From UHGV virus genome UHGV-0055581: a DNA stretch of 40,858 bases; one strand, given 5' to 3'. Shown here in pieces: positions 26,445-40,858 of the stretch; within the stretch, counting starts at the first letter, position 1; each line of letters opens with the position of its first letter. The stretch is from a virus. The translations under genes and the position numbers were made by a program. The notes beneath the pieces are model-generated. The model was given only the letters and a program-made list of their open reading frames with translations, was not told the origin of the DNA and made no database searches.

Positions 26445-26687
26445 ATGACACACATGATCTTTCGTCATGGCGACATGAAGAAATGGAAAGGCGTTGGCTA
26501 CGACTTTGAAATCGTGAAAGCCGAAGAGCTTCAGGAATATCTGGATGCTGGCTGGTTTTCACATCCTGATGACCTTTTGAAGGATGTTGCAGAGCCAGAG
26601 CCAGAGCCAGAGCCAGAAGAAAAACAGCGTAAAAAGCCTGGTCGAAAACCTAAGGCGGCAGCAGATGAACCTGACAACGAAGGGTGA
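26445..26687 (+). CDS. Small hypothetical protein with (EP)n repeat
   Basis: 80 aa; contains [10 protein letters not shown] encoded by a (GAGCCA)4 tandem repeat; overlaps the gp4 start in another frame. Confidence 0.45.
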
Positions 26688-27165
26688 TTTAGTTCTTGCG
26701 GCATTACGTAAGCTCGGTGTGGCATCAAATGCCACGTTAACCGATGTAGAACCGCAGTCTATGGAAGACGGCGTCAACGACCTTGAAATGATGATGGCTG
26801 AATGGCTTGGCGGTGATGTGTCACCAGGTATCAACGTTGGCTACATTTTCGCTGATGCAGATGTCGCTCCAGATCCGGGAGATGAGCACGGTTTATCAAA
26901 TAACGCTATCAATGCCGTCATTTTCAACCTTGCCTGCCGCATTGCACCGGATTATGCGCTGGAAGCGTCAGCAAAACTTATAACCACTGCCAGATACGGG
27001 AAAGAGCGACTCGTCAAACTGTCTGCAATGGACAGAGCAAAAGCCGCTAAATGTAAGTCCGGTTATCCAAACCGTATGCCTGTTGGTAGCGGTAACCAGT
27101 TGGCGAAGTGGAACGGTTGGAATTACTTCCACCGAAAGGAACCTTGCGATAACGGGAGCGAATAA
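26665..27165 (+). CDS. Head-completion/tail-accessory protein (P22 gp4-like)
   Basis: [28 protein letters not shown]...[15 protein letters not shown] similar to P22 gp4 by recollection; start taken at MNLTTKGD rather than the upstream ORF extension. Confidence 0.8.
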
Positions 27166-28584
27166 ATGCCTATTCAGCAACTTCCGCTTATGAAAGGTGT
27201 CGGCAAAGACTTCCGAAATGCCGACTATATCGACTATCTGCCAGTGAATATGTTGGCTACACCCAAAGAAATCCTCAACAGCAGCGGATATCTTCGCTCA
27301 TTCCCGGGCATTGCCAAACGTTCTGATGTGAACGGCGTATCGCGAGGCGTCGAGTACAACATGGCGCAGAATGCTGTTTATCGCGTGTGTGGCGGCAAGC
27401 TCTACAAAGGCGAAAGCGAAGTCGGTGATGTTGCCGGAAGTGGTCGCGTATCAATGGCGCATGGGCGGACATCACAGGCGGTAGGCGTTAATGGTCAACT
27501 GGTCGAATACCGCTATGATGGCACGGTTAAAACCGTCTCAAACTGGCCTACAGACAGCGGATTCACGCAGTATGAGTTGGGTTCTGTTCGTGACATTACG
27601 CGCTTACGCGGGCGTTATGCGTGGTCAAAAGACGGAACTGATTCATGGTTTATCACTGACCTTGAAGACGAATCGCATCCTGACCGCTACAGCGCACAAT
27701 ATCGCGCAGAGTCTCAGCCTGACGGCATCATCGGCATCGGAACATGGCGAGATTTCATCGTCTGCTTTGGTTCATCGACGATTGAATATTTCTCCCTGAC
27801 GGGTGCAACCACCGTTGGTGCTGCTTTGTATGTCGCACAGACATCTCTTATGGTGCAGAAAGGCATTGCCGGGACTTACTGCAAAACGCCATTCTCTGAT
27901 TCTTATGCGTTCATCAGCAATCCGGCAACAGGTGCTCCGTCTGTGTATATCATCGGCTCCGGTCAGGTATCACCAATCGCCAGCGCGAGCATTGAGAAAA
28001 TTCTCCGCTCCTACACTGCTGATGAACTGGCTGATGGTGTGATGGAGTCTCTGCGATTTGATGCGCATGAGCTGCTGATTATCCATCTTCCGCGCCATGT
28101 TCTCGTGTACGACGCATCTTCAAGCGCCAATGGTCCGCAATGGTGTGTACTGAAAACAGGCCTGTATGACGATGTGTACCGCGCTATCGACTTCATTTAC
28201 GAAGGCAATCAGATAACGTGCGGCGATAAGCTGGAATCCGTGACCGGGAAATTGCAGTTCGATATCAGCAGTCAGTACGACAAGCAACAGGAACATATTT
28301 TATATTCTCCTTTAATAAAGGCAGATAACGTTTTAATAAATGACCTTGAATTAGAAACATCTGGCGGCGTGTGTGATAGAATAGATAGAATATTTATATC
28401 AGCAACTACAGATGGAATTAATTACGGTCGTGAGCAAATGGTCGTATTACAAAAACCATTTGTATATGACAATCGCGTTTTATGGCGAAAAGTTGGTCGA
28501 GTTAGACGCCTCATTGGATTTAAATTCAGAGTTATTGCAAAAGGTCCTGTTACATTATCAGGCCTTTCTATTCGTGTAACATAA
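27166..28584 (+). CDS. Tail-accessory protein (P22 gp10-like)
   Basis: 472 aa, the same length as P22 gp10; conserved gene order; last ~100 codons are AT-rich. Confidence 0.8.
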   Translation: MPIQQLPLMKGVGKDFRNADYIDYLPVNMLATPKEILNSSGYLRSFPGIAKRSDVNGVSRGVEYNMAQNAVYRVCGGKLYKGESEVGDVAGSGRVSMAHGRTSQAVGVNGQLVEYRYDGTVKTVSNWPTDSGFTQYELGSVRDITRLRGRYAWSKDGTDSWFITDLEDESHPDRYSAQYRAESQPDGIIGIGTWRDFIVCFGSSTIEYFSLTGATTVGAALYVAQTSLMVQKGIAGTYCKTPFSDSYAFISNPATGAPSVYIIGSGQVSPIASASIEKILRSYTADELADGVMESLRFDAHELLIIHLPRHVLVYDASSSANGPQWCVLKTGLYDDVYRAIDFIYEGNQITCGDKLESVTGKLQFDISSQYDKQQEHILYSPLIKADNVLINDLELETSGGVCDRIDRIFISATTDGINYGREQMVVLQKPFVYDNRVLWRKVGRVRRLIGFKFRVIAKGPVTLSGLSIRVT

Positions 28585-28605
28585 ATCGAAACTAAAGGAG
28601 TAGAT

Positions 28606-29151
28606 ATGTTGAGTGAAAACGCAAAAGATATTCCTGGATATGAAGGTTTATATGCCGTAACAGAGGATGGGCGAGTATATTCTCACTCACGTGTTGTTAA
28701 GGCTGCGCATGGCAGCACGCAACTCAGAAAGGGTCGGTGGCTAAAACAACACGAGAATAATAAAGGTTATCTATATTTGCCACTTAGTGTTGATGGAGTT
28801 AAAGTAAAATGGCTTGTGCATAGGCTTGTCGCTCTTGCTTTCGTCCCCAATCCAGAAGGCAAGCCGTTCATAAATCACATAGATAACAACCGAAAAAATA
28901 ATAATGCTTCTAATTTAGAGTGGTGTACTCAAAAGGAGAATATGAAGCATTGCTCATCTCAAGGCAGGGTGAAGTTTCCGGCTTTAAAAGGAGAAAATAA
29001 TCCAATTTCAAAGCTCTCATATGAGCAAGTAATAGAAATAAAGAAATCAAAGGGAGTTAATCAAAGAGAGCTTGCTAAAAAATACTGTGTCAGTCAGACG
29101 GTGATTCACAATATCCAGTCTGGTAAATCGTGGAGGCATGTTAATGGCTGA
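28606..29151 (+). CDS. HNH homing endonuclease (NUMOD4-like N-terminus, HNH_3 core, HTH C-terminus)
   Basis: [16 protein letters not shown] (NUMOD4-like), [14 protein letters not shown]...[18 protein letters not shown] (HNH_3-like); AT-rich; inserted between two conserved tail genes; strong AAAGGAG RBS. Confidence 0.8.
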
Positions 29152-29992
29152 TTCGAATCTCAATGTGCCGGTAATCATCCAAGCTACGCGACTCGACACA
29201 TCAGTGCTTCCACGCAATATCTTCTCGCAGTCGTATCTGCTTTACGTTATCGCACAGGGTACTGATGTTGGTAATGTGGCGAACAAGGCCAACGAGGCCG
29301 GACAGGGCGCTTATGACGCACAAGTCAGGAACGATGAGCAGGATGTGATTCTCTCTGACCATGAGCAGCGAATTTCTGCTGCGGAAGCAACGCTTGTTAA
29401 TCATGAGGAGCGAATCAGCCAGGCAGAATCAACTCTTCAGGAACATGAAACGCGAATCGCTCAGAATGAAAGCGATATTGCGTCGCTTGATACCAGAGTT
29501 CAGTCGCTGGAATCGCAGGTTTCAGACCATGAAACGCGCATCGATGCTCTGGAGTATGCCACTACTCGCAAGAAGTCAGAGGTTGTTTACTCTGGCGTAT
29601 CTGTAACCATCCCGACAGCGCCGACCAACCTTGTTAGCCTGCTGAAAACGCTCACGCCGTCATCCGGCACGTTGGCACCATTCTTCGACACCGTTAACAA
29701 CAAGATGGTTGTGTTCAACGAGAACAAAACCTTGTTCTTCAAGCTGTCGATCGTCGGGACGTGGCCCAGCGGAACCGCCAACAGGTCAATGCAGCTAACC
29801 TTTTCCGGCTCTGTTCCTGACACACTGGTAAGCAGTCGCAACTCGGCGACAACAACCGATAACATCTTGTTAGCTACGTTCTTCAGCGTGGATAAAGACG
29901 GCTTTCTTGCCACAAATGGCAGCACGTTAACCATTCAGTCAAATGGTGCGGCGTTTACTGCCACAACCATCAAAATCATTGCGGAGCAGTGA
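29144..29992 (+). CDS. Tail needle protein (P22 gp26-like) with extended C-terminal domain
   Basis: N-terminus [43 protein letters not shown] matches P22 gp26; heptad coiled coil; C-terminal ~140 aa differ from the P22 gp26 I recall. Confidence 0.8.
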
Positions 29993-30471
29993 TGGAAATA
30001 AAGCTCATCGATAATCCGGTGAAGCTTGCAGAATTCCTCAACAACCCGGCAAACACGGGAAATATCGTAGACAGTGGAGATAAATACTACATCAAGCCTG
30101 ATGCGGTATACCTCGGCATCTACGAAGGATTAGTGCTGGCTGGCGTTCATGAAGTGCGTAACTTCTGGCATAGCGTTGTTGAATGCCATGCGGTGTACGA
30201 CCCCGGATTCCGTGGTGAATATGCACTGCAAGGGCATCGATTATTCTGCAAATGGCTTCTCGAAAACTCACCATTCCTTAACAGCATCACCATGGTTCCT
30301 GACACAACGAAATACGGACGGGCAATTATCCGTTTGCTTGGCGCTACCCGTGTTGGTCACCTCGATGATGCTTATACCAGCAATGGAAAGCCTGTAGGCA
30401 TCACGATTTATCAGTTACCGCGCTCAAAATACGAGGAGCTAAAGAATGTTAATTTTCCAGATTGCCAATAA
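29992..30471 (+). CDS. P22 gp14-like protein
   Basis: 159 aa in the conserved position between gp26 and gp7; ATG overlapping the gp26 stop. Confidence 0.6.
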   Translation: MEIKLIDNPVKLAEFLNNPANTGNIVDSGDKYYIKPDAVYLGIYEGLVLAGVHEVRNFWHSVVECHAVYDPGFRGEYALQGHRLFCKWLLENSPFLNSITMVPDTTKYGRAIIRLLGATRVGHLDDAYTSNGKPVGITIYQLPRSKYEELKNVNFPDCQ

Positions 30472-32494: not shown

Positions 32495-34605
32495 TGGCCT
32501 ATAGTCGTGAACAGTTGATGACGGCGTTAAGGAATGCTGATGCTGCCGGCGATACTGAGGGAGCACGTCGCATTGCTCAGATGCTGTCTTCTGGTGATCA
32601 ATCCACTCAAAACCAATCGCAGCCAGAAGAACAATCTCTGGTAGGAAAAGCCACTGACTGGCTCACTGGTGGTCAAAGCGCAGGGCAAATTGCAGAACAG
32701 GCTGGCCGTGGTCTGGTAAACATACCATTTGACGTGTTACAGGGTGGTGCAAGCCTGATTAATGCAATCAGTCAGGGGCTTGGTGGTCCCAAGGTTTTGG
32801 ATGATGTCTATCGTCCAGTCGATCGACCGACAGACCCTTACGCGCAAGTCGGTGAAACAATTGGTGGGTATCTCCTGCCAATTGGCACAGCGGCAAAAGC
32901 TGCTGGAGCGCCAGCAAAGCTCGCTGGAGATATCGGTTCCGCAGGAAACATGATTGCAGGTTCTCTTGCTGATGCTGCAAATCAGGAGGGAGACTTTGCA
33001 CAAAATGCTGCCATTAACGGTGGTATCAATATTGGTGCTCAAGGCGTTCTTTCAGGTGTCGGGCGCGTTATTGCGCCAAGGGTTTCACAGGCTCTTGGTG
33101 GTGCAGCACTGAATTCTGCTAATGATGTTTCCAGGATGGCAAAGTCAGGTGCTGGGCGTCAGTCAATTGCCAGTCAGGCCGCTAATGTGTCCGAAGATGT
33201 AGCAAAAGCGGCTGAGTCTGCTGGAATTGATATAAACGCATTAACACCAGGAATGCGATCTGGAAGTCGTGGAATTGCACAAGCCGAAGGCGCATTGGCA
33301 TCAACACCAGGAATTGTTCAGGACGCCCATCAGGCAGCATTTGACGAAATATCATCAAAGTTAAGTCGAAACCTTGATGAATTTGGGGCCGCATCTGGAA
33401 CGGCATCAGAAAAAAGTGCGGCTATAAAACAAAGGATTCTTCAAAATCTTGATCAGATGAAGGATGCCGAGCGCGCGGCATGGGATGACGTGCGGTCAAC
33501 GATGCCAAATCAAAAAGCAAGAATGCTAAATGGTAATGCCGTTATTCAGGCAGAGCGATCTGCTGGCATACCGCTTACTCCTGAAATGAAACAGTTTGTT
33601 CAGGCAAACAATCAAGGTGGAGTAACATTTGATGGCATGAAAGCATGGAGAGCGAAATTTGCTGATGCGGAGCAAAAATATAAGCGTAGCGGAGAGGCAA
33701 ATGCGGCAAGGAGAGCAGGGGAAATACGCCGGGCAATTACTGATGATATGCGCACAATGGCGGAAAACGGCGGATTTCTTGATGACTGGCAAAAAGCTAA
33801 TGATCTGTCTAAAGCGAGGTTATCAGCACAAGAGAGTGCAGAGTCTGTTTTCGGGCGTGATTTGGCAACAGATGCACTGATTACGAATGGAGTAAAATCC
33901 CTTCAATCATCGTCAGCTAAAGGTCTTAATGGCCCTGCTGGATTCCATTCTATGATCCGCGCGCTGCCAGAATCAGAGCGTGTTCCTGCTATATCATCAA
34001 TGTTGCAGGATGCTATCTCGCATGGTGTACGTGGTGGTAAATCTGATGCAGCAGGAATTAACCATATCGCAGGGATACTTACCCCACAAAATGTAAAAGC
34101 CATTAGCAGATATTCCTCAGAACTTGGAAGAATTGCTGATGCATATGGCACTCTTGCAAGAGCAGCAGTGAAGCCTCAGCAGTATATTGAAAGAACAGGG
34201 AGAACTGCCAATGTGCTACGCGATCTGGATGCTGGTTTATCCAACGTCACATCAACAGTGTTAAATGCAATTGCCAACTCAACATCAGGTGCCATTGTTG
34301 GTGGAGCAGGAGGGGGCATTGCAGGCGCTGCCGCAGGTGCTTTAGTTGGCGCCGGGTTAAAAGGTGCTGTATCTAAAATTGCCACCACGCGTAGCGGTCG
34401 ATATGCGATAGAGAAAGCAGTTCAGGAAGCCACGAAAGCAGTAAGAGCTGGCGGAAGTAAAGAAGCATTAGCGGCGGCGGAACGCAGATTTATGGCAAAT
34501 AAAGCCGCCGTAAAAGCAATACGTGATGCAGTTGGAAACGAAGAGTTCAATCGCTTAGCGAGGGCTGGCATTGTAGCGTCGCTAAGCGGAATGGCACAGG
34601 AGTAA
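32494..34605 (+). CDS. Ejection protein (P22 gp16-like), longer than the P22 protein I recall
   Basis: 703 aa; TAATG overlap with upstream gene; Ala/Gly-rich; conserved order. Confidence 0.7.
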
Positions 34606-34977
34606 TTAATCATCCATGGATGGATTGAGCTTATCTCGTGTTGATGTGGCGATTTGTCCTACATTCCTAAGCCAAGATTTCAAATCCTTGATATTGTCAT
34701 TGATTTCATGAATATCTTCTTTTTTTAATCTGTTAATATTATTCTCAATAATTTCAATGGATTGCTCAATATCAGATATAGTGAATGATAGTTTGTTCTT
34801 CTCATCTTTTATTGAGTTTTTAAGTGCTTCGTTCTCAGTCTTGAGGTCAGATATCTTTTGTTTTAAAGATGCCAGTTGGTACTGAACCACAATGAGTGCG
34901 ATAGCTATCACGATAACTGTTGTATACACACCAACCTCCTTAGTTTTGCGCAGGATACCAGATGAAATGGTCTTCAA
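34606..34977 (-). CDS. Membrane-anchored coiled-coil protein, candidate superinfection-exclusion factor (sieA position)
   Basis: 123 aa; N-terminal TM helix (VYTTVIVIAIALIVV) then heptad coiled coil; strongly AT-rich; TTG start overlapping the stop of the upstream Mnt-like gene; no good SD. Confidence 0.5.
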   Translation of the reverse strand: MKTISSGILRKTKEVGVYTTVIVIAIALIVVQYQLASLKQKISDLKTENEALKNSIKDEKNKLSFTISDIEQSIEIIENNINRLKKEDIHEINDNIKDLKSWLRNVGQIATSTRDKLNPSMDD

Positions 34978-35357
34978 AACTGGATGTCTTCAGCATCATC
35001 GCCAAAAACATTTTTATATGCATCTTGCCTTAAGCTCCTGAGAGCTTGATACATTTGCGAATGAGAACTGATGCTATCTAGTAAGTAGAAAATTGCTTTG
35101 ACTAGCTCATTCTCCCACCGCTCAAACTCTTCTTTGTTTGATGGCCTGTTCCCGGAGAGGTTTGAGTAAATCTTCATAATCCTGGAGTTATCAACCTCAG
35201 CAGGCACCGGAGACTTCAATGCATCATCAATGATAAACACTAGTTCTGTATTCATTGATCTGCCGTTTTCCTTTGCTCTTAAGGCTATAGCATCCCGCAT
35301 TCCTGCCGGAAGCCTGATATTGAACCTATCCATTTCATGACTAGGGAACTTGCTCAT
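34974..35357 (-). CDS. Mnt-like ribbon-helix-helix repressor with extended C-terminal domain
   Basis: 127 aa; FNIRLPAGMRDAIALRAKENGRSMNTELVFIIDDALKSPVP resembles P22 Mnt FNFRMPMEVREKLKFRAEANGRSMNSELLQIVQDALSKPSPV (recollection); divergent from arc. Confidence 0.65.
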   Translation of the reverse strand: MSKFPSHEMDRFNIRLPAGMRDAIALRAKENGRSMNTELVFIIDDALKSPVPAEVDNSRIMKIYSNLSGNRPSNKEEFERWENELVKAIFYLLDSISSHSQMYQALRSLRQDAYKNVFGDDAEDIQF

Positions 35358-35413
35358 ATGACCTCAACGTAAAGATGTTCGCTAAACAATAGCACCAACT
35401 TGACATCAAAATA

Positions 35414-35453
35414 AATGATACCAACTTGGTTCTAGAACCAAGTTGGTATCATT
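35414..35453. promoter_or_regulatory. 40-bp perfect palindrome (putative operator) between the divergent mnt-like and arc genes
   Basis: AATGATACCAACTTGGTTCTAGAACCAAGTTGGTATCATT; a third half-site-like copy ACCAACTTG at 35393..35401 overlapping a TTGACA hexamer. Confidence 0.7.
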
Positions 35454-35469
35454 GTGGAGGGGATTACTT

Positions 35470-35643
35470 ATGAAAGATGTGCTTTACACAGGTCGTAAAA
35501 GTCAAAGTTTCCAGCTTCGTTTGCCAGCGCGAATGAAGGAGGAGATTAGACGTGTTGCTGAAATGGATGGAATTTCTATCAACTCTGCGATTGTGCAGCG
35601 ACTGGCTAAAAGCCTGAGAGAGGAAAGAGCTAATGCCCAGTAA
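35470..35643 (+). CDS. arc: Arc-like ribbon-helix-helix repressor
   Basis: 57 aa; FQLRLPARMKEEIRRVAEMDGISINSAIVQRL resembles P22 Arc FNLRWPREVLDLVRKVAEENGRSVNSEIYQRV (recollection); GGAGG RBS. Confidence 0.7.
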   Translation: MKDVLYTGRKSQSFQLRLPARMKEEIRRVAEMDGISINSAIVQRLAKSLREERANAQ

Positions 35644-37576: not shown

Positions 37577-40282
37577 ATGACAGACATTACAGCCAATGTT
37601 GTAGTGAGCATGCCTTCGCAACTCTTCACTATGGCGCGTTCTTTTAAAGCCGTAGCTAATGGCAAAATTTATATCGGTAAAATTGACACTGACCCGGTAA
37701 ATCCTGATAACCAGATTCAGGTCTATGTTGGGAACGAAGATGGTTCTCACGTTCCTGTTGCACAGCCAATCGTCATCAATGCCGCTGGGTATCCAGTATA
37801 TAACGGACAGATTGCCAAATTCGTAACCGTGCAAGGCCATTCTATGGCTGTTTACGATGCTTATGGCACTCAGCAGTTTTATTTCCCAAATGTATTAAAA
37901 TACGATCCAGATCAGTTTGGCCCAGACTTCAAAGAGCAGTTATCTCAATCAGGAGCATACATTAATGATGATTCAAAAGGTGATGCATTAATTGGGGTAA
38001 GGCAGCCATTTACCGGGGCTGTAACTATAACTCAGCATGAAAACAATGCTCTTTTCTTAAATGTAAAACAATTCGGAGCAATTGGGGATGGGAAATATCA
38101 TCCATTATCTGAGAGGTTTTCTTCAATTTCTGAAGCAAAATCCTTATATCCTTTTGTTGACTCATTATCTCAGTCAATAGACTGGGCCGCGTGGCAAGCT
38201 GCCCTTAACACAGGAAAGGTTATTTATGGTACTGATAATGCGTATGTAATAACGGATACGTTAACACCTGTTTCTGGTGGTGGGATAATTGGTCTTGGTG
38301 TGGGCAAATGGGTCTCCGGATATACTGCAACATTTGCTCCTGATATTACCACAGGGACCACATTCCTGATGTACGGGGTAGGAAATAAAAAATATACTGT
38401 AGATTGTGTTTCTAATATGGATGTTAGTGGTGGTGTGGTTTCTAATCCATCTTCCGAAGACCCGTATACAACAACAGCACCTGCGTCATCATATGATTTA
38501 TTGGATTTTACTAACGGTGATGCTAATGGGACTACAAGAGCCACGCTTAAACCATTCTCTGCCGCAATATTGATGCCTGAGACAGGATGTGTTCGCCTTG
38601 AGAACTTTCGTGTTGTTCCATATTTCAATGGGCTGGATGGTTATAAAGACATTGCAAATACCGGTCTTGGCGATGAGTGGGATGTAGGTATTTGGTCACG
38701 TGCGTCTTTTGGCAATGAATACCGCAATTTGCAGGTGGTTGGATACTGGCGCAAGACGGCACTTTTAAAAACGAACATTCCTGTATCTGGCACGCTGGCT
38801 GCTCAGGGCGAGGATGAAAACTATTATCACTGTAGATTCCAGGGATTCAAGGGTGTTTCGATCCGCGCCAATGATGTATTCCGAATTACAGCGGTAACGT
38901 CCAGCACTATCGAAATCCCATGGTCAGCAAGCCACACCTTCGAAACGTCCGGAGTTTTAAGATCTGGAGGCAGGAATTTCACTTATTCAGGATTATCCGT
39001 ATCCGGTGATAAGTTAGTATTTACTGGAGTGTCTAACGCTTCTGAGGCAACAGTAGGTTCTACTATACGGCGAAATGACATAGATAACTTTGGTATGGCG
39101 GGAACGCAATTTTTCGATTGCTACATTACCAGCCTGTATCACCACACACATCTGCTTGCCACATCGCAATACCTGTCTCAACCATTCAGCCGACCATCAG
39201 AGTGTATGGAGGTTTCAGGGGAACCAGTTCGCGGTGTACAGGTACATGCAGGAACCATTCAGGGATGGGATGATGTTCTTATTCATCTGCATGACTGTGG
39301 AAATATGAACTTTTACAGTACATATTTCGAAAGCCAGCAAGCATATGTAACTATAAATGGTGGTAATGCTATTGGTTATGGAGCACGTATGATAGCTTCC
39401 CGGCAATCAACAAGCTCATTACCATATGCAGCAGGGAATACACGAGTGCTTAGAATGGTCGGGTGCTCTGAAGGCAATGGCGTTGACTGGGGTCCTGTAT
39501 TTAACAACTATACAGGAGGAAGATATAATTCTGGAGACGGTGTATTTAACCCCCGCGATGCATTTATAGACCATAAATCTCTTCCTGAGCAGTCAGGAGG
39601 TGAGTCAAGACTCGTATCACAAAAAGGAAATGCCAGAGTAGTATGTGGTGTTGGTAAAACTGTACTGCTTGGACCAACGTCAGGAGATTGTAATTTACAG
39701 AGTAATACCGGAAGTTTAAATATTAGAAGTGGGATAAGAGTAAGAGTCGGTCACGCTGATGGAACAGACTGGTGGTTGGCAGATGCTAATAAAATAGCTC
39801 CTGTTGATGATAATGTTAAAGCTATTGGACAGCCATCAAACAGATGCTCTGTTATCTATGCAGGAACCGGGTCAATCAATACATCAGATGAAACTCTTAA
39901 AACAAGATATGATATTCTTAATGCAGAGCGTGATGCCGCTATTGAAATAAAGTCAGTCATCTATAAATTTAAATTTAATGACTCAATTAATCACAAAGGA
40001 ATTGAGTCGTCCAGGTATCATTTTGGCGTTGGCGCTCAAACCGTAGGGGATATTCTTAGAAAGCATGGTTTAAATCTTGAGCAATATGCTTTTTGGTGTT
40101 ACGATGAATGGCCTGACGTATGGGATGAAGAGGTGATAACTGAAGAGAGCACAGATCCTGATACAGGTGAGAAAATTTATTCTCAATATAAAACAGGAGA
40201 TATGATTCTTGTAAAAAAAGCAGGAGGACGCTACGGAATTCGTTATGACGAATTGGCTATGTTTATATTAATGGCAATGTAG
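37577..40282 (+). CDS. Tailspike: P22-type head-binding N-terminal domain, divergent receptor-binding domain, C-terminal chaperone-like region
   Basis: N-terminal ~110 aa ([34 protein letters not shown]...VLKYDPDQ) match the P22 tailspike by recollection; remainder AT-rich and unrelated; C-terminus has an SDETLK motif like the cleavage-site motif of endosialidase-type chaperone domains. Confidence 0.9.
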
Positions 40283-40300
40283 TTGCAATAAATGCAGTAT

Positions 40301-40330
40301 ATCCCGCATAAAAATGCGGGATTGTTTTTA
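40301..40330 (+). terminator. Rho-independent terminator after the tailspike gene
   Basis: ATCCCGCA-loop-TGCGGGAT hairpin followed by TGTTTTTAT. Confidence 0.75.
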
Positions 40331-40628
40331 TCTGGTGTATTTATGAATTTTAAGTAAATTTTAGTATTGATTACTGCATCGCAGTTAAAGCCTCATTACC
40401 TATGAGGCAAAACTGAGACACACAAGGCTTTGCACTGGATTGCAAGGCTTTGTGCTATCTGAGATATAGCAATGTTGGTTGCTCCACCTTTTCATCAAGC
40501 CAGTCCGCCCACCACTGCATCATTTCTCTGCGCTTATCGAGATACTGAGCATGGTTGTAAATTCAACTAACCCAGTGAGTTGACAAAAAATTAGCGCAAG
40601 AAGAAAAAAAATCACCTTGCGCTAATGC

Positions 40629-40790
40629 TCTGTTACAGGTCACTAATACCATCTAAGTGGTTGATTCATAGTGACTGGATATGTTGTGTTTTGTCGCGTT
40701 TTGCAGTCTATTATTTAATTATTAAGTAATCTAATGCTATGATTTTTAAATTATTTATTTGATTTTGTCATCCTTTAGGTGAAAAAGGTT
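40629..40790. other. attR: attR: P-arm Int arm-type sites (CAGGTCACTAAT 40636..40647; inverted TTCATAGTGACTG 40666..40678) and core repeat (40773..40783)
   Basis: CTGTTACAGGTCACTAATACCATCTAAGT and GATTCATAGTGACTGGATATGTTGTGTTTT match the lambda attP P-arm as recalled; the core repeat is identical to that at 45..55. Confidence 0.7.
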
Positions 40791-40858
40791 GAGTCGCAAA
40801 GCAGAATGCATCTAGCATAAAGCCTTATTATTGATGAGGCTATCATGCGCGTACTGCT

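Follow-up and report, generated by a model that had tools for sequence, protein, structure and literature searches.

The HNH endonuclease I-HmuI of Bacillus phage SPO1 is a nicking enzyme encoded within a group I intron. Free-standing homing endonucleases of T4-like phages, such as SegG and MobE, spread by 'intronless homing' (PMC2988022; PMC2790892). They sit between two conserved essential genes, are present or absent among close relatives, and are co-inherited with a divergent flank through co-conversion or marker exclusion, carrier immunity being provided by differences in the target sequence. HNH genes also occur in P22-like phages, as a gene 31 fusion in epsilon34 (PMC2629481) and between terminase and portal in SEN22 (PMC5261728). 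The subject of this work is a viral sequence of 40,858 nucleotides (nt), UHGV genome UHGV-0055581, referred to as the window, in which an HNH gene separates the tail hub gene gp10 from the tail needle gene gp26. The window is a P22/Sf6-like (Lederbergvirus) prophage, with positions 28000-29400 being 100% identical to Escherichia coli DLL7555. The element is likely a free-standing, I-HmuI-like HNH homing endonuclease cassette, carried by a P22/Sf6-like E. coli prophage within its late operon and spreading by intronless homing.

The locus shares with the T4-like elements its place between two conserved essential genes, its presence or absence among close relatives, and a divergent flank that is co-inherited; target sequence differences would likewise confer immunity on carriers. 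It differs from them in its host, which is a temperate P22-like podovirus or prophage, and in its site, which is the tail-hub/needle junction. Instead of a few polymorphisms, a foreign stretch the size of a domain (~300 nt, only ~56% identity) is linked to the gene, and homing is here predicted from sequence comparison. Among P22-like phages, HNH matches were also found in N7, Louie, Dewey, and ST-35. The HNH proteins of P22-like phages are 38-54% identical in amino acids (aa) to that of the window and belong to the same broad NUMOD4/HNH family; those of epsilon34, SEN22, N7, Louie, Dewey, and ST-35 represent scattered insertions in Lederbergvirus, at sites other than gp10/gp26. Phage HZ41 and WP_021514124 are identical to the window cassette and WP_000947776 is allelic to it at the same site, all three being database entries only. 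In the literature searched, we found no description of an HNH gene at the gp10/gp26 site or of a linked replacement of the gp10 end, and an earlier description may exist.

The mobile unit consists of the foreign last ~95-105 codons of gp10, a 21-nt spacer with the ribosome-binding site (RBS), and the HNH open reading frame (ORF), which ends on the gp26 start codon. All of its parts, as well as gp10 and gp26, lie on the plus strand. The gp10 gene (27166-28584; 'packaged DNA stabilization protein'; Pfam PF11134 Phage_stabilise, E=1e-282) has 472 codons, and its product has Sf6 gp8 (PDB 7SG7, E=7e-298) and also P22 gp10 (8TVR) as structural relatives. Its AT-rich replacement tail occupies 28296-28584 (codons 378-472, GC content 0.34). 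The spacer (28585-28605), which contains the Shine-Dalgarno sequence AAGGAG at 28595-28600, 5 nt ahead of the HNH ATG, is conserved in the HNH alleles A, B, and C described below. The HNH gene of the window (28606-29151, 181 aa) is allele A, which equals RefSeq WP_021514124. It is followed by gp26 (29144-29992), which encodes a tail needle of the Sf6 knob type (Pfam Phage_tail_NK, E=1e-117). The program-made ORF list begins gp26 at ATG 29138, but the start is better placed at ATG 29144, because homology to Sf6 (MADSNLNVP...) supports it and GGAGG at 29132-29136 lies 7 nt upstream. The HNH stop codon and the gp26 start overlap in ATGGCTGA. Sf6 itself couples gp26 to gp10 via TAATG; the overlap indicates that translational coupling has been handed from gp10 to the HNH gene. 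As for a private promoter or terminator of the HNH gene, nothing beyond shuffle expectation was found.

Alignment with Sf6 and base composition delimit the same tract. Identity to Sf6 is 94.7% as far as 28295, and the alignment resumes at 29142 (29142-29994, 95.9%). GC content drops from ~0.51 to 0.34-0.40 across 28296-29143, and this island as a whole (GC 0.374, z = -2.8) falls in the lowest 0.5% of same-size stretches across the 40.9-kb window. The gp10 body has a GC content of 0.513 and a GC content at third codon positions (GC3) of 0.53, whereas the values for the final 318 nt of gp10 are 0.355 and 0.226, respectively. GC content is 0.396 in the HNH gene and 0.506 in gp26. An earlier note on this DNA had described an AT-rich gp10 end from about 28290 with an endonuclease of like composition behind it, while gp10 still encoded a full-length protein. 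With the Sf6 similarity stopping at 28295, that boundary was accurate to ~6 nt, and both the GC contrast and the full length of gp10 are borne out.

The HNH protein has three recognizable regions. Pfam NUMOD4 matches aa 7-60 (44.1 bits against a cut-off of 23.4, E=2.4e-11) and HNH_3 matches the core at aa 70-113 (40.8 bits against 24.8, E=1.7e-10), which confirms the 181-aa HNH protein with a NUMOD4-like N-terminus of the earlier note. A C-terminal helix-turn-helix (HTH) spans aa ~139-174, where the match to HTH_3 (aa 144-174) is weak. The ORF also matches PHROG 59 (E=3e-58). I-HmuI (PDB 1U3E) is the best solved relative by sequence (E=2.3e-12, 27% identity). In the AlphaFold2 model (predicted local distance difference test score 90.2), the order of strands and helices matches the NUMOD4-HNH-HTH architecture, and I-HmuI is the sole significant PDB fold match of the model (E=9e-9, full length, 182 columns). 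Both proteins have an N-terminal β-sheet DNA-binding region (NUMOD4), an HNH ββα-metal core, and a C-terminal HTH; unlike the intron-encoded I-HmuI, the window gene is free-standing between two genes. The general-base histidine and both asparagines of I-HmuI (His75, Asn87, and Asn96) align with His91, Asn103, and Asn112 of the window protein. Among 121 homologs, His91 and Asn112 are conserved in 121, Asn103 in 120, and His115 in 113, and His91, Asn103, and Asn112 are invariant or near-invariant in an 80-sequence alignment as well. The catalytic residues whose loss the earlier note had considered are thus retained, and the motif appears intact relative to its own family. Comparison of the HNH gene with the Salmonella copy gives a ratio of nonsynonymous to synonymous substitution rates (dN/dS) of 0.08, and comparison with the copy of locus L017 gives 0.05, values that point to strong purifying selection. 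Taken together, sequence and fold support the ORF as an I-HmuI-like NUMOD4-HNH-HTH enzyme, a predicted endonuclease.

The insertion is polymorphic. In a set of 30 representative genomes from many genera, all 30 HNH-free gp10 loci join gp10 directly to gp26, in agreement with the claim of the earlier note that the HNH gene interrupts a syntenic block, and tail GC equals body GC in 29 of them. The cassette is present in 52 of the 912 E. coli genomes having this gp10 region, and it occupies one fixed site in every carrier. We then ran the segment 28266-28660, which comprises the tail and the HNH 5' end, against 5426 complete E. coli genomes. It matched 53 genomes, and in 52 the match continues into the HNH start. 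An exact 27-mer of the tail end occurs in 18 IMG/VR contigs, with HNH allele A or B at +22 in 17/17 that have enough downstream sequence, and the HNH gene is present in all five metagenome contigs bearing the same 27-mer. Within the phage collection, the tail was found only in HZ41 (OM022251, an unverified and unannotated record), together with an identical HNH gene. The cassette is also found in a Salmonella contig, with 88.8% nt identity. In no E. coli genome, IMG/VR or metagenome contig, or phage of the collection did we find the AT-rich tail unaccompanied by an HNH gene downstream. The earlier note had proposed just this, an AT-rich gp10 end lacking the endonuclease, as the test of its reading, and no such case was met in any collection searched, HZ41 and the Salmonella contig included. 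Its view of the gp10 end as a co-converted flank gains support from the linkage of tail and HNH gene (52/52, 17/17, and 5/5) and from the nt identity to Sf6, which is 56% for the tail vs 95% for the body.

Three E. coli copies lack an intact HNH annotation; in each, an insertion sequence (IS) interrupts the 5' portion of the gene, namely IS1 in M160133 and IS3 in ETEC6333 and ETEC6334. These IS-disrupted copies are natural knock-outs. In one of the 17 IMG/VR contigs the HNH gene stands behind an insertion of ~785 nt, which in contig L057 would be of the same kind as in the IS copies and lies ahead of the HNH gene. A homologue search with the 106-aa tail returned gp10 fragments only. One of its matches, P0003 (77% protein identity), was considered as an intermediate and rejected, as it is a frameshifted version of the same cassette (94.5% nt identity). 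In ENA ERZ1759873 contig_137, a cassette copy of 94.5% nt identity has gp10, HNH, and gp26 split into many short ORFs, and this contig, the origin of the misleading 77% protein match, is probably an indel-rich long-read assembly.

The tail has a history different from that of the gene to which it belongs. Compared with Sf6, the gp10 body of the window is 99% identical in aa and 95% in nt, and the tail 62% and ~56%. Compared with the HNH-bearing loci L014, L016, and L017, the body is 78-81% identical in aa and 71-73% in nt, and the tail 83-88% and 76-81%; the synonymous divergence (dS) from these loci is 1.0-1.2 in the tail and 1.8-2.9 in the body. HNH homologs located between gp10 and gp26 as well are 85, 75, 68, and 61% identical in aa in L017/L018, L014/L015, the Providencia rettgeri loci L012/L013, and L016, in that order. 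In L014, L016, and L017, whose locus GC is 0.50-0.54, the gp10 tail has a GC content of 0.39-0.42 vs 0.53-0.57 in the body, and GC3 falls at codon ~361-381 in four independent lineages. HNH-linked tails carry the signature residues ...ETSGGVCDRIDRIFIS... and ...SGLSIRVT, where HNH-free tails have ...ESSTGVAQYADRLFLS... and ...SGAQIRIE. From these comparisons, the tail is clearly incongruent in phylogeny with its gene and foreign to it, grouping with the tails of other HNH-bearing lineages. The tail is at most 70% identical in nt to every phage gp10 except that of HZ41; likewise, when an AT-rich donor lineage was sought by tblastn of the tail against phages, nothing above 70% but HZ41 was returned. 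In the Providencia rettgeri prophage, which also has an HNH gene, the tail falls in the same clade (71% aa identity) and shows no GC contrast with the lower-GC genome, which fits a lower-GC origin of the cassette. In the same loci (CP109846, 3180-4973), gp10 is called as 597 aa with ~125 extra N-terminal aa overlapping gp4, which may reflect either a wrongly chosen start or a genuinely longer protein. In local blastn, Gally and UPF_BP1 seemed to have the AT-rich tract in common with the window as far as 28485; identity is 52-66% bin-wise, so that this was dismissed as alignment over-extension. That the cassette swept recently through E. coli backgrounds is in general not supported, the dS between the window and the O111 copies being 0.21 in the tail and 0.25 in the body.

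The right end of the tract is fixed at the gp26 start, and the left edge (28266-28295) is variable, as seen from alignment and from typing of the left 30 nt in 23 further contigs. The switch lies at ~28296 in the window, HZ41, SBF22, and most allele-A copies, in which 28266-28295 is of the Sf6 type. It lies ~30 nt earlier, at ~28266, in all allele-B and some allele-A copies, in which 28266-28295 is of the cassette type, ATCTTCACAATACGAAAAACAACAAGAGCA. The left edge in other lineages differs as well, by ~10-15 codons. These edges can be accommodated in a homing event as follows. An HNH-bearing phage or prophage would meet an HNH-free relative inside one cell, where the enzyme would nick or cut the naive allele near the gp10/gp26 junction. 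Repair would copy from the donor the HNH gene along with flanking sequence, and the entire gp10 tail would be dragged along, with the tract ending wherever the two sequences become homologous again, at 28266 or at 28296. Since the donor and naive tails are only ~56% identical, a homologous crossover anywhere from the HNH gene to the left edge of the tail would be precluded; this alone would account for the 100% linkage as well as for the tract ends at the return of homology. The gp10-stop/gp26-start junction, AGATAAGGATTGAGTAATGGC, is the most conserved contiguous nt stretch among 14 HNH-free loci, and in carriers AGATAAGGATTGAGTAATGGC is split by the insert, with its left half rewritten. It is a candidate cleavage target.

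Several points weigh against homing as the driver. Cleavage activity, the target site, and spread brought about by the endonuclease are what we infer from the comparisons above. Asn90 stands where I-HmuI has the metal ligand Asp74, yet asparagine is the family norm (119/121 homologs) and would be a conserved subfamily feature rather than a mutation of decay. The search for an AT-rich donor genome found none: a scan of one genome per species yielded 30 loci, all at most 70% identical to the tail and all HNH-free, and Providencia rettgeri was ruled out, its tail being only 71% identical in aa and without a GC contrast. Between lineages, the HNH genes (60-85% aa identity) diverge more than the accompanying tails (83-88%), and a single tail accompanies both of two HNH alleles that are ~50% identical. 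This suggests a tail that stays put as an anchor while the HNH gene behind it is exchanged, a more complicated picture than homing in its simplest form. Finally, the HNH-free gp10 of Citrobacter sp. Res13-Sevr-PEB04-36 (locus L042, 2500-2900) has a tail GC of 0.43 vs 0.57 in the body and a tail that belongs to the Sf6-type protein clade, showing that the joint at codon ~370 of gp10 can, as judged by composition, be a mosaic boundary even without an endonuclease.

This last locus leads to ordinary mosaic exchange, which of the alternatives survives best but is in our view unlikely. By this account, tail and HNH gene entered the P22-like phages of E. coli and Salmonella through ordinary recombination, homologous or illegitimate, with a P22-like phage of lower GC and persist by hitch-hiking, and the endonuclease plays no role and is maybe inactive on these genomes. 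P22-like virion genes are indeed strongly mosaic, L042 has a GC-deviant tail from the same joint, the gp26 alleles downstream vary freely among carriers, and complete linkage is expected from the non-homology inside the tail, whatever starts recombination. An idle passenger, however, fits poorly with an HNH gene that has a dN/dS of 0.05-0.08 and keeps all family-invariant catalytic residues, or with a site that is the same in at least five diverged lineages. The occurrence of the cassette on several gp10-body and gp26 backgrounds also speaks against it, as does a sibling HNH gene that shows a like signature of a replaced gene end at the opposite end of gp10.

A domesticated function is very unlikely. 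The HNH protein would then benefit the phage rather than being purely selfish, whether by attacking P22-like competitors that co-infect or reside in the same cell, with marker exclusion as the benefit, by counteracting defence or processing DNA, or in packaging. Such a role would suit the purifying selection on the gene and its long persistence at a single site, translational coupling to gp26 keeps the cost minimal, and some prophages keep two HNH genes bracketing gp10; on the other hand, ~94% of the E. coli genomes that have this gp10 lack the cassette (52/912 carry it), IS-disrupted HNH copies exist, and the architecture is that of I-HmuI-type homing enzymes. Competitive exclusion, moreover, would use the same cleavage-and-repair mechanism as homing. 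With regard to packaging, P22-like phages use headful packaging with the TerL nuclease, terminase-associated HNH proteins adjoin the terminase genes, and the HNH gene here is not beside them. Sf6 has been reported to package by headful (PMC9728967).

Three other classes of element were rejected. A terminase-associated HNH protein of the HK97 gp74 type does not agree with a gene between hub and needle, downstream of portal, scaffold, coat, and gp4. A transposon or IS is not indicated, as no direct or inverted repeats flank the cassette ends and no transposase domain was found with Pfam. An intron- or intein-encoded endonuclease is dismissed as well, the ORF lying between the gp10 stop and the gp26 start, and no match to an Rfam intron or other RNA family being found in 27900-29500.

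Within homing as the preferred explanation, the cassette proved to be more diverse than the window alone suggests. Allele B (WP_000947776, 177 aa) is ~50% identical in aa to allele A and occupies the same site behind the same AT-rich tail. In the allele-B loci of the E. coli O111:H8 strains 8234, 503829, and W13-16, the tail is 93-98% identical in nt to that of the window. Alleles A and B are similar only in the first ~50 nt and the last ~45 nt. When the HNH bodies were scored separately, the 52 E. coli carriers comprised 16 of allele A and 36 of allele B. Allele C (WP_178943738, 194 aa, 54% aa identity) is found in Salmonella phage UPF_BP1 (NC_047875, 2384-3160), inserted between gp4 and gp10, and it shares 86% identity with the window HNH gene over the RBS and first ~160 nt. 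Upstream of allele C there is a 31-codon remnant of the gp10 5' end followed by stop codons, and downstream there is a full 472-codon gp10 that begins inside the HNH 3' end. Codons 1-31 of this gp10 are divergent, sharing 64/96 nt with the remnant, and resemble the L014 lineage. Alleles can be combined: in E. coli K56-43-un (locus L051, 2958-3683, minus strand), as annotated by the Prokaryotic Genome Annotation Pipeline, gp10 is bracketed by alleles C and B, and the IMG/VR contigs L060 and L065 have the combinations C+A and C+B. The cassette is widespread and old, it comes with either of two HNH alleles, and it has a sibling at the opposite gp10 end, all of which the earlier note overlooked. 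What is newly recognized here are the two HNH alleles on one tail, and the sibling HNH gene with its replacement of codons 1-31 at the other gp10 end. The UPF_BP1 record starts gp10 at 3165 (436 aa), and the 472-codon ORF, which has 53 nt in common with the HNH 3' end, begins at 3057; the deposited start is probably wrong. A mis-started gp10 is an annotation pitfall in UPF_BP1-type genomes.

The two cassettes can be related to the structure of the tail hub. In Sf6 gp8, the N- and C-terminal extensions jointly form the apical insertion domain (PMC9728967). By analogy, the replacement tail (codons 378-472) would supply the C-terminal extension of this domain. As the domain is built from both extensions, the two cassettes would therefore replace segments that include the extensions of one domain; the statement holds at the level of segments and derives from the description of the Sf6 structure. 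We tentatively propose, as a possibility and not more firmly than that, that gp10 is a hotspot colonized at both ends by related HNH genes. These would share a 5' module (RBS and first ~50 codons) and diverge from one another beyond it, and each would carry a portable, divergent replacement gp10 end, codons 1-31 upstream and ~368-472 downstream, as 'gene-end swapping' homing elements.

With respect to the remainder of the window, gp10 is preceded by gp4 (26584-27165), and gp26 is followed by a gp14 homolog (DUF2824) and by ORFs positioned as the Sf6 ejection genes gp7, gp20, and gp16, which were assigned by place only. There are two further AT-rich islands (GC 0.32-0.39). The one at 34560-35570 holds two minus-strand ORFs (34606-34977 and 34974-35357) directly past gp16, and the one at 39450-40858 holds the 3' end of a 901-aa ORF (37577-40282) plus the sequence past it.

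Both RefSeq, under the name 'NUMOD4 domain-containing protein', and GenBank (HZ41) already contain the element, whose mechanism class is well known. No new kind of system is revealed, intronless homing being conceptually familiar. What the locus would offer is a naturally occurring and genetically accessible case of intronless homing among temperate P22/Sf6-like phages, for which excellent genetics and solved tail structures are available. Population data are at hand: of 912 related E. coli prophages, 52 carry the cassette, in two alleles and with two lengths of the tract, and there are copies inactivated by an IS as well as prophages with HNH genes at both ends of gp10. If gene-end swapping holds true, it would drive domain-level mosaicism of an essential virion protein, and the cassettes could serve as marker-exclusion weapons between competing prophages. 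The locus illustrates how a selfish nuclease can push a domain-sized foreign segment into an essential structural gene and so contribute to the mosaicism of virion genes.

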